A stretch of DNA of 25,407 nt from Candidatus Hodarchaeota archaeon. Its GTDB lineage: Archaea; Asgardarchaeota; Heimdallarchaeia; Hodarchaeales; Hodarchaeaceae. This document shows positions 14,880 to 19,449 of this stretch, one piece after another. Within the stretch, counting starts at the first letter, position 1; each line of letters opens with the position of its first letter. Position numbers and translations under genes: made by a program. The notes under the pieces are model-generated. The model saw nothing but the letters and a program-made list of their open reading frames with translations. It was not told the DNA's origin and made no database searches. The stretch lies in assembly GCA_029856365.1 (NCBI GenBank), contig JAHQWW010000048.1, positions 1 to 25,407 of the forward strand. Reading direction: 5' to 3'.

Positions 14880-14920
14880 GTTCAAGAACATTCAAGAATC
14901 GTTTAACAAATGCAATTTAA
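14880..14920 (+). promoter_or_regulatory. Shared upstream element, copy 1: GTTCAAGAACAT-N19-TGCAATTTAA
   Basis: The 12-mer (14880-14891) is identical to 17470-17481 and contains the palindrome GTTC-AA-GAAC. The second box (14911-14920) matches 17500-17509 at 9/10 positions. Confidence 0.65.
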
Positions 14921-14955
14921 GTTTGCGTGAGAAATTTCAATCGAGAGGTTCTAGT

Positions 14956-16332
14956 GTGAACTGCAAAGTTATTATCACTAACAAGAAGATATCAAATGTT
15001 CTCTTGACAGTTATGCTTTGTTTAAGCAATCTAATTATATTGGGAGCTAAAGCCGACATTCAAGCACTTGTTGATCAACAATATCCGATTAAAATTGAAC
15101 AGAGTGAAATTCCCCTTTTTGGTGGGATTAATTCTATTCGTGTAATTATTGGAGAAAGCACAATTGGTGTACTCTATGGTACGATTGATAATCCTCAACC
15201 ACTCTACTTATTCACTGAATTCTCACAAAAAATAGCCACAGTTCAGATTTTCAATCGTCGAGGAACTCTAGAAAAAGAGATAGAATTGAATGTCCAAAAT
15301 ATATTTGCAGTTCGTTTGGATACTATAATTGAATTCTCTGATAGGAATAATGATGGTTTGTACAATGCCGTACAAGACCATATACCTCTAAAGATGGTAA
15401 ACCTTTCAGCGGTTTCATTCTATGTTACAAAAAATAATGATAGCTCGAGTTCTTCCGGAGATTACATCAGATATAATGTGAATTTTACCGCGAGGAACAT
15501 CTCTTATCAAAGGATTGATAATTCCCCTATCAGATCAACTTTAGATAGTCTTTGTTTTGCTTTTGAACTGACAATCGAACAAGACCAAGTAATAGTGTCT
15601 GAAGTTCCAATTATTTCTATTCATCCACAAGGTCTAGGTTTTGAAGTTTCTAAAACTGTTAATAGCGAAGGTTTACGAGCAAATCGCTTAACTCCTCGAT
15701 TGAAGTTTTCATGTAGTATTGTAGGATGGGATTATTCTTCATCCAAATCGAAGCTTTTGCTAAAAAGTGCAATGATAACGCGTGAGGAAATCTTGACGAC
15801 GTTAGGAGCAATATCTGGCAAAGATATAACTCGGGAAACCCTAAAATCAACTAATATCTTCAGTAGATTGACATTTAACGTTGAGCAAGACGGAGGAGCA
15901 AGACAGTCATATTTAGATCACAAAGAAAATCGTACCAAAGAATATTCTACTCGTAAGTTTTCAAATTTCCAGATATCTTTAGGAAATTCAATAAGGAATT
16001 TTCTGAATTTAACCTGGCAGCCTTATCTTGATGCAGATGGCAAGGATTATCCAGTGGTTTTTCAGTTATTAAAATCTGGCGAAGCAACCTTTCGTTTTCA
16101 TCACGCTAATCCGTTAACAAGTCTTTATCTAATTGGTGGATTTGTTTTTCCTCAAGGAGAGGAAATCTTTTATGACCCTGAAGTCCAACTAGAAGAATTA
16201 AATCCCATTTTCTCTATACCTAAGATACCAAATCGTTCAATACTAGAAGATAATAGCCTGATAATACTGATTTCAGGATTCTTCATAGGTATTTTGATCT
16301 TGTTCCATCAACTTACCAATAGACGGAGATAA
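14956..16332 (+). CDS. Secreted, C-terminally membrane-anchored surface protein (paralog A)
   Basis: Signal-peptide-like N-terminus ending A-K-A, a DxNxDG loop (IIEFSDRNNDGLY), beta-rich body, IFYDP motif, then a TM helix and RRR. GTG 14956 with GAGGT at 14945-14949 is preferred over TTG 14923. Confidence 0.8.
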   Translation: MNCKVIITNKKISNVLLTVMLCLSNLIILGAKADIQALVDQQYPIKIEQSEIPLFGGINSIRVIIGESTIGVLYGTIDNPQPLYLFTEFSQKIATVQIFNRRGTLEKEIELNVQNIFAVRLDTIIEFSDRNNDGLYNAVQDHIPLKMVNLSAVSFYVTKNNDSSSSSGDYIRYNVNFTARNISYQRIDNSPIRSTLDSLCFAFELTIEQDQVIVSEVPIISIHPQGLGFEVSKTVNSEGLRANRLTPRLKFSCSIVGWDYSSSKSKLLLKSAMITREEILTTLGAISGKDITRETLKSTNIFSRLTFNVEQDGGARQSYLDHKENRTKEYSTRKFSNFQISLGNSIRNFLNLTWQPYLDADGKDYPVVFQLLKSGEATFRFHHANPLTSLYLIGGFVFPQGEEIFYDPEVQLEELNPIFSIPKIPNRSILEDNSLIILISGFFIGILILFHQLTNRRR

Positions 16333-16383
16333 AGATACAGGATATTCACCTAAGGTATGTGAATTAATCAAGGATTAGTCGCT

Positions 16384-17271: not shown

Positions 17272-17469
17272 AGTCCAACAAGTGTTGAACAGATTTTTTT
17301 TATATATTTATTGATTTCTTCCGGTCTTATTTATACAAATATCGCTTCGAAGATTTTTTCTTTTTTTTTCATAGCTTGTGAGGCTATAGATGGGCTTTTA
17401 AAGAAATTTAATAACAATTTTCAGTTCAAAATGGTGAATTTAGGGATTTCAACATTTGTATAACATATT

Positions 17470-17509
17470 GTTCAAGAACATAGATTCTGTAAATTTAATT
17501 GCAATCTAA
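17470..17509 (+). promoter_or_regulatory. Shared upstream element, copy 2: GTTCAAGAACAT-N18-TGCAATCTAA
   Basis: TGTTC-AA-GAACA perfect palindrome at 17469-17480. It matches the element at 14880-14920 in sequence, orientation and spacing (one nt shorter). Confidence 0.65.
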
Positions 17510-17565
17510 AATTCAGATTGACACTATAAAGAAAAAAAATCAAATAAAAATGGTGAAGAATTTAG

Positions 17566-19449
17566 ATGATTGAAAATAAATTAAAAAAAATACTGATTTG
17601 GTTTCTAGTTGCAGCTTCACTCTTTGGGACATCGATCATATCGGGTGTTGGTTCTTCTAGTGTTGGATCAATTCCTGTGGAACGTCCTCAGGGGATTAAG
17701 ATGAATCAAATGCACAATGGATTTCTCTGGCTGATTCGTAACTTACAAAGTGCTGGTTTTACTCCTGATAATGTTTATTATGGTGTATATGATAGTATTG
17801 GTACATATGGTTATCCTATCGTTGGTGAAAGAGAACGAGAAGTTACAATAACCCTTAATGATCTGATAGTTTTACTGAATACTACAATTGATCGTTTAGA
17901 AGAGATTGGTACAGATTCAGGTACATTGACATACCTTAATGATTTATATACTGAACTTCTCGCTCATGACGAAGTAACAATCTATCATAAGGTTGATTCC
18001 GATTTATCAGTCGCTAGTAGTCACGATCGTAAGGCGGTAACAATTTTCTATGACAATGATCGCAGTGTACTTGATACTTTTAACAAAATAAAGAACAACG
18101 AAACCATTACTGAACAGCCTTTTTCTGGAGATGAAATCCTTACAAATATTTTCATGTCACTAATTCGAGATGAAATCAGTGGATCTTATGATGTCATTAA
18201 CACTTGGGAATATGAGAATGGATCTGACGCAGCGTTATTGAAAGATTTCATTCGTCGTATCATTGATAACCGATGGCTTTATTCTGAGGCGAGATTTCTA
18301 TTTAGACTTCCTGCAATCAATAAAATGCGAACCATGGTTCAGGAGACCAACTCTTGGAATGCATCAGAGGAGGATCCTAGAGTCCTTGAATATGGCCGTT
18401 TTGAAATCTCTCAATTATTAATTAATGAGCTAAATTTACGGAAAGTAGGCCAAAATCTTGTTATTAGTGAATATGATTATATGTATATGGAACATCACCT
18501 TCTAGGTAGTTTAGTATATAATGATACCAATGAGAATGGAATGATGGATATTGGGGTAGAAACTATCCCCGTAGGCAATTATAACCTTGCTTATCCAACA
18601 ATAGGTGATGAGGCTCAATACCGCTTTGATATCAAAGATATTGACTCCAGAACTTATCAGATGCCGCAAACTACAGATGATGTGATAGAGTTTGGTTCAG
18701 AGTTTGAAAATGTAGTTGGCTATTTGCTGCCCATTGAGAGAAACCAAGATGACAGTCTATTCGATATATCCGCAGGCCAAGCATACAATGTGGATGAGCT
18801 TTCTACTCTTTTTCATTTCTCTGTAAATAATACAGAAGGAAGTACTAATCTAAAATTCGATTATATCATTGGAAATTGGAATAACACTGAATCTCTAGAA
18901 GGATTAGGATTTAGCCAATTAATGACTTCAACAGTTGTGGATGCTCACAGGACACGAACATTCCAGTGGCGGAACGAAAACAACGCTGAATTAGGTGATA
19001 CTGATGAAAATGCTTCTAGGATATCACGCTTTCGACTAGCGTCAGCTGAGGGATTGTTTGGTGAAATTCGTCTAGATGACATTCCTTACTTATGGGGCGA
19101 TACACAAGAAAAAATGAATGCAGTTGGCCAATTAATCCCGATGAGTTTAATAGATGTTACTTATGGCCGAATCTCAAGTGAGGCTGATTTAATCCGTAGT
19201 ATTAGTGGTGAAATCACTCGAAAGACATTTCTATATTCTGTATCTTACCCTAACTGGGATGGTAAGAGCATTACTCACGATCCTACGTTTGCTGCAGTTG
19301 GGGGTCTGGCTGCTGAAGCTTCAGACACCTCTGAAACTCAACCCCCATCAGACGTGGAGAGTGGTATTCCAAGTTTTGAATTTGCAACGGTTTTTATCTC
19401 AATACCATTACTAGCTCTTATTGAAATATATAGACGCAAATACAAGTAA
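17566..19449 (+). CDS. Secreted surface glycoprotein with a PGF/PEF-CTERM-like anchor (paralog B)
   Basis: Signal peptide (KKILIWFLVAASLFG), many N-x-S/T sequons, YNDTNENG loop, ITHDP motif, S/T/P/E linker, then IPSFEF, a TM helix and RRKYK. Confidence 0.85.
   Translation: MIENKLKKILIWFLVAASLFGTSIISGVGSSSVGSIPVERPQGIKMNQMHNGFLWLIRNLQSAGFTPDNVYYGVYDSIGTYGYPIVGEREREVTITLNDLIVLLNTTIDRLEEIGTDSGTLTYLNDLYTELLAHDEVTIYHKVDSDLSVASSHDRKAVTIFYDNDRSVLDTFNKIKNNETITEQPFSGDEILTNIFMSLIRDEISGSYDVINTWEYENGSDAALLKDFIRRIIDNRWLYSEARFLFRLPAINKMRTMVQETNSWNASEEDPRVLEYGRFEISQLLINELNLRKVGQNLVISEYDYMYMEHHLLGSLVYNDTNENGMMDIGVETIPVGNYNLAYPTIGDEAQYRFDIKDIDSRTYQMPQTTDDVIEFGSEFENVVGYLLPIERNQDDSLFDISAGQAYNVDELSTLFHFSVNNTEGSTNLKFDYIIGNWNNTESLEGLGFSQLMTSTVVDAHRTRTFQWRNENNAELGDTDENASRISRFRLASAEGLFGEIRLDDIPYLWGDTQEKMNAVGQLIPMSLIDVTYGRISSEADLIRSISGEITRKTFLYSVSYPNWDGKSITHDPTFAAVGGLAAEASDTSETQPPSDVESGIPSFEFATVFISIPLLALIEIYRRKYK

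Follow-up and report, generated by a model that had tools for sequence, protein, structure and literature searches.

Membrane-tethered one-component regulators, in which a DNA-binding domain is fused to membrane helices, are known in bacteria as ToxR/ToxS, CadC and BcrR, and in the ToxR/ToxS pair a co-encoded partner facing the periplasm modulates the regulator. In archaea, ArnR carries a HAMP-like region and two transmembrane (TM) helices. ArnR and ArnR1 of Sulfolobus acidocaldarius are membrane-bound and act as one-component regulators on the genes for archaellum and pili (PMC6396743). Bacterial dyads of HAAS (Yip1 clan) and a PadR-like winged helix-turn-helix (wHTH) factor have been proposed as an alternative to two-component envelope signalling (PMC11237479). 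GLMP (NCU-G1) is the accessory subunit of the lysosomal transporter MFSD1 (PDB 8R8Q, 6NYQ; PMC11252000, PMC6819133), and a 2026 preprint counts Yip1 among the Asgard proteins with eukaryotic counterparts, present in other prokaryotes too. Here we describe three adjacent genes, A, R and B, in a Candidatus Hodarchaeota archaeon (assembly GCA_029856365.1; 4.24 Mb, 84% complete). They lie on contig JAHQWW010000048.1 (C46 in our numbering), all 25,407 nucleotides (nt) of which were analysed and are called the window below. From sequence comparison we favour, with moderate confidence, the reading that A-R-B is a conserved Asgard module in which R would be a membrane-tethered regulator of A-R and of B, with A and B as possible co-sensors. 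What is new here is a phylum-wide class of anchored partners for an otherwise known kind of protein, the membrane-tethered wHTH regulator.

Three open reading frames (ORFs) on the same strand occupy positions 14923 to 19449 of the window in the order A, R, B. The first-pass annotation, which had placed two anchored surface proteins around R in a co-oriented triad, was confirmed on these ORFs. The genes and their domains are as follows.

14956 to 16332, plus strand: gene A, 458 amino acids (aa) from a GTG start (listed ORF 14923 to 16332); signal peptide, predicted galactose-mutarotase/GLMP-like beta-supersandwich, the conserved FPQGxxIxYDP and IPNRS, C-terminal TM helix and RRR tail.
16384 to 17271, plus strand: gene R, 295 aa; ArsR-type wHTH, linker and five-TM Yip1-like domain.
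16435 to 16644, plus strand: wHTH of R, aa 18 to 87, Pfam DUF7347.
Within gene R, plus strand: Yip1-like domain, aa about 115 to 295, placed by the orthologue alignment and by Pfam Yip1 in homologues.
17566 to 19449, plus strand: gene B, 627 aa; signal peptide, larger predicted beta-supersandwich with helical inserts, YPxWxGxxIxHDP, Ser/Thr/Glu-rich linker, then IPSFEF, a TM helix and the RRKYK tail.
About 19363 to 19446, plus strand: Heimdall-CTERM-like tail of B, with a sub-threshold profile score.

A and R are separated by 51 nt (33-51 nt among orthologues), and R and B by 294 nt (284-321 nt among relatives).

Over aa 18-87, R scored 29.3 bits with Pfam DUF7347 (PF24038, an ArsR-like wHTH), for which the cut-off is 27.6. 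R homologues were collected by a profile search across 1.8 billion proteins. PF24038 was found in all 42 of the full-length ones, HTH_20 in 38/42 and HTH_5 in 30/42, and PadR was matched weakly in 5/42. Searched against PDB, the R-family profile retrieved an ArsR structure (6J0E) at E 2.5e-5. The NCBIfam model HTH_metalloreg gave just 17.5 bits on R against a cut-off of 55, and the Pfam families listed for R and for its homologues included no HAAS-family entry (DUF1700, DUF1129 or DUF1048). A crude Kyte-Doolittle hydropathy scan of R and of the orthologue alignment placed about five TM segments at aa 135-292, and Pfam Yip1 was matched by 12/42 full-length homologues (best E 1.8e-8). We interpret R as a fusion of an ArsR-type wHTH with a Yip1-like 5-TM domain, the Yip1 assignment being transitive via homologues. 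The ArsR-type wHTH and polytopic membrane domain expected of the middle protein were thus both found. The best-conserved parts of R among orthologues were the recognition helix of the wHTH, which was invariant, and the last TM helix.

R belongs to none of the ArnR, HAAS-PadR, GLMP-MFSD1 or ToxR/CadC families. It shares with ArnR/ArnR1 the architecture of an archaeal factor with a cytoplasmic N-terminal HTH and C-terminal membrane helices, a likeness that comes without demonstrated homology, and ArnR/ArnR1 act on promoters of cell-surface structures, as we propose for R. Unlike ArnR, R has a five-TM Yip1-like domain and belongs to another wHTH family, and ArnR has no adjacent anchored supersandwich proteins. 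In the HAAS-PadR dyads a Yip1-clan helical membrane-associated domain is also functionally coupled to a winged-helix factor. However, those dyads consist of separate proteins with a PadR-type wHTH and partners of the PspC/Toastrack/LiaF type, whereas R combines an ArsR-type wHTH and a Yip1-like 5-TM domain in a single polypeptide and has anchored supersandwich proteins for partners. By this comparison the dyad would be a functional analogue of R and not a member of the same family. ToxR, CadC and BcrR differ from R in being bacterial, with DNA-binding folds of the OmpR or XRE type and other membrane domains. Full-text searches of the literature returned nothing on DUF7347, PF24038 or Heimdall-CTERM, and nothing joining GLMP with Asgard archaea.

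R orthologues with 54-90% identity were present in 14/21 other genomes of the same genus. The other same-genus genomes gave no R match or a weak, partial match to the wHTH only, and the five without any match are 70-91% complete. A was directly upstream of R in 14/14 same-genus loci (protein identities 35-90%), and B was directly 3' of R wherever the contig continued (12 complete copies and one partial; two contigs ended first). The triad, put forward in the first-pass annotation as a candidate regulon, was syntenic in all 14 same-genus loci carrying an R orthologue.

The linkage of R to anchored proteins also extended beyond the genus and was found across Asgard archaea in several gene orders. 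In a survey of 120 sampled Asgard genomes, which are related and so not independent samples, 83 contained full-length R-family genes; some R-family proteins carry Thermoprotei names. In about two thirds of 46 non-orthologous R loci, a gene no more than two positions from R encodes a protein that combines a signal peptide with a C-terminal TM helix. These anchored neighbours were upstream, downstream or divergent, at times in two copies, and many bore [HY]DP 40-60 aa from the C-terminal end. Several gave matches to the profile of A or of B, with E from 1e-8 to 1e-3, for example in L056 and L065 (2e-8), L083 (2e-7) and L069 (1e-6). In the host genome the anchored topology occurred in 93/3510 ORFs, and the topology together with [HY]DP in 5/3510, A and B included. 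Gene order inherited in one genus, with no functional coupling, would also give a syntenic triad, and the flanking hydrolase gene, which is likewise syntenic in the genus, indicates that local order is generally stable there. The linkage of R with anchored [HY]DP proteins recurs, however, in other families and classes in varied arrangements, against a background of 0.14% of ORFs, and we consider inherited order very improbable as the explanation. Because the arrangements around R vary, the association argues for functional coupling of R and the anchored proteins.

A and B have a common topology, with an N-terminal hydrophobic signal segment, a C-terminal TM helix and a basic tail. No family was found for either protein in Pfam (E <= 1) or NCBIfam, and no match to a galactose-mutarotase family was obtained in Pfam. 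Sequence homologues, 33 of A and 49 of B, occurred only in Hodarchaeales-type genomes, and a protein-atlas search with A and B returned unnamed archaeal clusters only. The AlphaFold2 models of A (pLDDT 80, pTM 0.75) and B (pLDDT 73, pTM 0.72) both predicted a long-strand beta-supersandwich followed by the C-terminal TM helix. In a VIA search of 48,161 representative chains, GLMP of the MFSD1-GLMP complex (8r8q_B) ranked first for both models. The Z score was 15.4 for A, with a root-mean-square deviation (rmsd) of 18.7 when the TM helix was included, and 13.4 for B, with an rmsd of 4.0 over 247 aligned aa. Foldseek with the A model retrieved two GLMP chains, 8r8q_B and 6nyq_C, at E 2.4e-6 and probability 1.0. 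In VIA the galactose-mutarotase-like chains 3os7, 3mwx and 1l7j reached Z 12-13.6 with an rmsd of about 4 over 220-243 aa for A and B. Since these chains score within about 1.5-2 Z units, the link of the modelled A and B to GLMP may be one of fold alone. Profiles of A and B searched against PDB sequences gave no GLMP chain at E <= 10 and nothing relevant.

A and B had been called paralogous, with three ordered motifs in common. All three motifs were present and did not vary inside either family. The first reads SDRNNDG in A and NDTNENG in B, the second LKFSCSIVGWD and LKFDYIIGNW, and the third FPQGEEIFYDP and YPNWDGKSITHDP, respectively. Predicted fold, topology and motifs are common to the two proteins, but the sequence statistics were not significant (BLASTP E 0.98; probability 0.3-1.6% in three hhalign runs), and the alignment of A with B by global hhalign was meaningless. 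A relaxed alignment of the A and B profiles passed collinearly through all three motifs, and motifs 1 and 3 recurred in anchored proteins adjoining distant R homologues. Because fold, topology, best structural match, collinear motifs and the recurrence of motifs beside distant R genes all agree, A and B are likely, although not proven, to be remote homologues. For the CTERM anchor assigned to B, a TM helix and a basic tail are present, but with Heimdall-CTERM (NCBIfam NF045529, a 26-position profile with a cut-off of 24) the B tail scored 14.9 bits, under the cut-off, and its closest orthologue 19.5 bits. One B homologue is named Heimdall-CTERM at NCBI, and the tail of A did not match the profile.

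GLMP and A/B are alike in their type-I topology of signal peptide, beta-supersandwich ectodomain and single C-terminal TM helix. GLMP partners a polytopic membrane protein, and for A and B we infer a partnership with R from gene linkage only. They differ in that GLMP has no sequence-level match to A or B, and the partner of GLMP is a transporter of the major facilitator superfamily, whereas the neighbour of A and B is a wHTH-Yip1 protein. These comparisons bear on the main rival explanation, that R is a structural or biogenesis partner of A and B. Its Yip1-like domain would bind their TM helix to stabilise, sort or position them, and its wHTH would have a role in protein contacts or in holding the complex to the nucleoid. 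To our knowledge, Yip1-family proteins are partners of membrane proteins and not sensors. The last TM helix is the most conserved part of R, and the linkage of R with anchored proteins survives changes of gene order phylum-wide, which suits physical partnership as well as regulation. The top structural match of A and B, GLMP, is itself an obligate accessory subunit of a polytopic membrane protein (PMC11252000, PMC6819133). On the other hand, the wHTH of R is of the standard ArsR DNA-binding type and its recognition helix is conserved, and precisely the A and B promoters contain gene-specific conserved pseudo-palindromes, described below. Partnership in place of regulation seems to us doubtful, though worth serious attention; the two readings are compatible and can be combined.

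A bolder proposal, which we think unlikely, joins partnership and regulation in a receptor-transducer system found throughout the Asgard archaea. GLMP-like type-I proteins would serve as receptors for an extracellular ligand, perhaps a glycan, and gate a Yip1-tethered ArsR-type factor by contacts within the membrane. In its boldest version, the anchored proteins and their Yip1-like partner would be kin of eukaryotic GLMP-type subunits and Yip1 endomembrane proteins.

The DNA upstream of A and B and behind R contains the following elements.

14880 to 14891, plus strand: 12-mer GTTCAAGAACAT upstream of A, an exact copy and the first of two tandem TTCAAGAA units.
14891 to 14907, plus strand: conserved element TTCAAGAATCGTTTAAC upstream of A, overlapping the TATA-like GTTTAAC; candidate operator of R.
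14911 to 14920, plus strand: second box TGCAATTTAA upstream of A; its ATTTAA part (14915 to 14920) is the conserved AT-rich promoter block.
17273 to 17290, plus strand: palindrome GTCCAACAAGTGTTGAAC, starting 2 nt past the stop codon of R.
17448 to 17464, plus strand: conserved element TTCAACATTTGTATAAC upstream of B, overlapping the TATA-like GTATAAC; candidate operator of R.
17470 to 17481, plus strand: 12-mer GTTCAAGAACAT upstream of B, an exact copy.
17500 to 17509, plus strand: second box TGCAATCTAA upstream of B, preceded by AATTTAAT.

The first-pass annotation had described a bipartite element, including the palindrome GTTCAAGAAC, upstream of both genes. GTTCAAGAACAT has 6 copies in the 4.24 Mb genome, of which the four others lie in coding-looking sequence, and the second box, of the form TGCAAT(T/C)TAA, follows at an offset of 31 in A and 30 in B. 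From the rarity of the 12-mer and the near-equal offset of the second box, the bipartite element is therefore real, and its origin by chance in the host genome is unlikely. Its conservation is limited, however. When 15 regions upstream of A and 13 R-B spacers were aligned, GTTCAAGAACAT was kept only in the nearest relatives, and at the 12-mer upstream of A TTCAAnAA was retained only in closer orthologues. The palindrome GTTCAAGAAC, which precedes the TATA-like box in A but follows it in B, was not the conserved part; the adjacent TTCAAS-N4-GTWTAAC was conserved instead.

TTCAAGAATCGTTTAAC was the best-conserved block among the 15 aligned regions upstream of A, and TTCAACATTTGTATAAC was the sole block conserved in 13/13 R-B spacers. 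A gene-specific conserved element was thus present upstream of both genes among orthologues. The common form TTCAAS-N4-GTWTAAC had exactly two matches in 4.24 Mb, upstream of A and upstream of B, both on the sense strand. As the pattern searched, TTCAA[CG]N4GT[AT]TAAC, was built from these two sites, the informative part is that no further copy was found. MAFFT alignment of the regions upstream of A and of B left the shared element unaligned. The same half-site and spacing occur in the palindrome behind R, where relatives have a full palindrome, GTTCAAC-N4-GTTGAAC, kept in about 8/13 orthologous loci. An intrinsic terminator at this position was rejected, since the T-run 3' of the palindrome was not conserved and the changes in its arms were not compensatory. 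By its pattern of conservation the palindrome behind R is more in keeping with a protein-binding site than with a terminator hairpin.

The elements may instead be ordinary promoter parts (TATA box, B recognition element (BRE) or proximal element) read by TBP/TFB or another regulator. R would then act on other targets or on a cytoplasmic ligand as a classical ArsR, and would lie between A and B for no reason other than co-expression. GTATAAC is found at -31 to -25 of a tRNA-Leu gene, which is a TATA position; the upstream regions of the 14 tRNAs detected gave no clean promoter consensus. Each of the two promoters contains a second TATA-like box, ATTTAA in A and AATTTAAT in B, the latter a possible alternative TATA box of B, and GTTCAAGAACAT and the TATA-like box come in opposite order in A and B. 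AATTTAAT-CACAAC was kept in the close clade only. Against this explanation, TTCAA preceded GTWTAA boxes at that spacing in just 9/3400 sites of the host genome, with no peak, so that it is not a general companion of these boxes and a general BRE-like role for TTCAA was ruled out. In addition, the composite element is unique to the A and B promoters, the same half-site and spacing make a full palindrome after R, where a promoter is unexpected, and similar dyads stand beside distant R genes. We judge ordinary promoter function to be quite improbable as the full account.

Dyads of the form YTCRA..TYGAR were counted in R-adjacent intergenic DNA of the 46 non-orthologous loci. The counts showed a sharp peak at a spacing of N6 (n=10), with 0-4 at other spacings from 0 to 12 and 2 in control intergenic DNA of equal size. 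GTTCAATtccgATTGAAG and CCTCGAAtttgTTCGAGG are examples beside distant R genes, and TTCGAGaaaaTTCGAA lies directly 3' of an R stop codon. The recognition helix fits G[TS][LF]Y[YHF]H[LM] in most R-family proteins inspected, a pattern that would fit a common TTCRA half-site.

In the regulatory reading that we favour, R would be a one-component regulator whose cytoplasm-facing ArsR-type wHTH is tethered by the five-helix Yip1-like membrane domain. A dimer of R would bind pseudo-palindromes of the form TTCAAS-N4-GTWKAAC. Its site upstream of A would overlap the TATA-like box of the promoter of an A-R operon and so give autoregulation; R would act likewise at the TATA-like box of the B promoter, and a third, near-perfect site would lie just behind the R gene. 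Because the candidate sites overlap TATA-like boxes, repression through blocking TBP/TFB is the simplest guess as to the direction of regulation. The ectodomains of A and B, with their predicted fold of a sugar-binding type, might be the regulated output, co-sensors, or both, and as co-sensors they could report to R through a single TM helix contacting its membrane domain.

Several results weigh against this regulatory reading. The right half of both conserved elements looks like a TATA box, so the resemblance between the A and B elements may partly reflect ordinary promoter function. The palindrome fails as a genome-wide regulon motif, with only 2 sites at no more than one mismatch, and GTTCAAC-N4-GTTGAAC showed no genome-wide enrichment over permuted palindromes. 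A three-unit pattern, T[TA]nAA[CG] at 10-12 bp, was nonspecific, with 51 genomic matches, similar to controls. Enrichment of the dyads beside distant R genes was modest (Fisher p 0.12 for adjacent versus control intergenic DNA and 7e-4 for adjacent versus everything else), and A or G at their fourth position was allowed only after hits had been seen. Generic 7-N4-7 palindromes were not enriched near R (0.41 versus 0.26 per kb in controls, compared without a statistical test). R itself did not match Pfam Yip1 (PF04893) at E <= 1. Finally, some R subfamilies adjoin other partners, either a C-terminally anchored protein of about 1020-1066 aa or a small protein with 4-6 TM segments.

Almost nothing is known about how Asgard archaea transmit signals across the envelope, and no known archaea are much closer to eukaryotes than Hodarchaeales and a few others. 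The module, present in about two thirds of the sampled Asgard genomes, would open a way to test how these cells perceive their own surface or their surroundings; for direct binding tests, the present locus supplies a candidate operator of defined sequence and a small soluble domain. With the module it could also be tested whether two types of eukaryotic endomembrane protein have older, functionally linked counterparts in prokaryotes. If true, kinship with GLMP and Yip1 would add a new pair to the repertoire shared by Asgard archaea and eukaryotes.

Two further conserved features precede the start codons of A and B.

14936 to 14948, plus strand: TTCAATCGAGAGG, in 14/15 orthologues, 8 nt before the start codon of A; probably a 5' leader with the Shine-Dalgarno-like GAGAGG.
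17550 to 17556, plus strand: ATGGTGA, with the Shine-Dalgarno sequence (GGTGA) of B, kept in 10/13 orthologues.

The start of A is most likely the GTG at 14956 rather than 14923, because the orthologues (458 aa) begin at the equivalent position and GAGAGG lies upstream. The database version of A has 439 aa and covers 96% of the 458-aa query; we infer that it begins at ATG 15013, which would cut off most of the signal peptide. GTTCAAGAACATTCAAGAAT (14880-14899), upstream of A, consists of four alternating TTC/GAA units in a layout like that of a heat-shock element; this layout was retained in the four to five closest genomes and was degenerate in the rest of the genus. A scan of 14700-19600 with Rfam gave zero matches.

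An alpha/beta-hydrolase gene (14033-14806, minus strand) diverges from A and was syntenic with the triad in 12/14 loci of the genus. In the divergent spacer between the two genes TTTTATAAG is conserved at 14838-14848; its minus-strand reading is CTTATAAAA, and it probably serves the hydrolase gene as TATA box. On the other side, 19522-20625 (minus strand) encodes a protein like DUF917/thiohydantoin desulfurase (NCBIfam E 7e-19, far under the cut-off). The gene at 12042-13043 (plus strand) was judged by eye to have an AbrB/SpoVT-like N-terminus with a PhoU-like remainder. Both of these flanking genes seem to lie outside the module.

Two subfamilies of R have neighbourhoods of their own. In L045, L047, L048, L050, L052 and L062, from other Heimdallarchaeia, R always precedes the anchored protein of about 1020-1066 aa and is itself preceded by the same four genes (about 385, 226, 366 and 374 aa); several of these loci have a TTCGA-N6-TCGAA dyad directly 3' of the R stop codon. 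In L046, L049, L053-L055, L057 and L061, the gene before R encodes a protein with 4-5 TM segments and a Gln/Pro-rich tail, and the anchored partner is absent. In most loci of this second group R is followed, on the opposite strand, by a linker-histone-like protein of 230-250 aa with a Lys/Ser/Thr-rich tail.

The host genome encodes further anchored proteins at C80:5031-7334 (plus strand) and C131:48505-49761 (minus strand). Both have the B-type (S/C)YPxWxGxxxxHDPxY, a Ser/Thr/Glu-rich linker and a C-terminal TM helix, and on these features are probable B-family paralogues. The R-family profile found no R-type gene near either of them and one full-length R in the host genome. At a further locus of the host, L066 (C64:3000-13500), the ORFs are 5082-6221 (minus strand), 6624-7079 (plus strand) and 7560-10046 (minus strand). 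Here two soluble DUF7347-like wHTH proteins (profile E 1.5e-9 and 2e-4) adjoin a surface protein of 828 aa, which ends in IPGFEF, a TM helix and RRRK and scored 17.9 bits with the Heimdall-CTERM profile. L066 is thus a second pairing of a DUF7347-type wHTH with a surface protein, in this case without a membrane domain.

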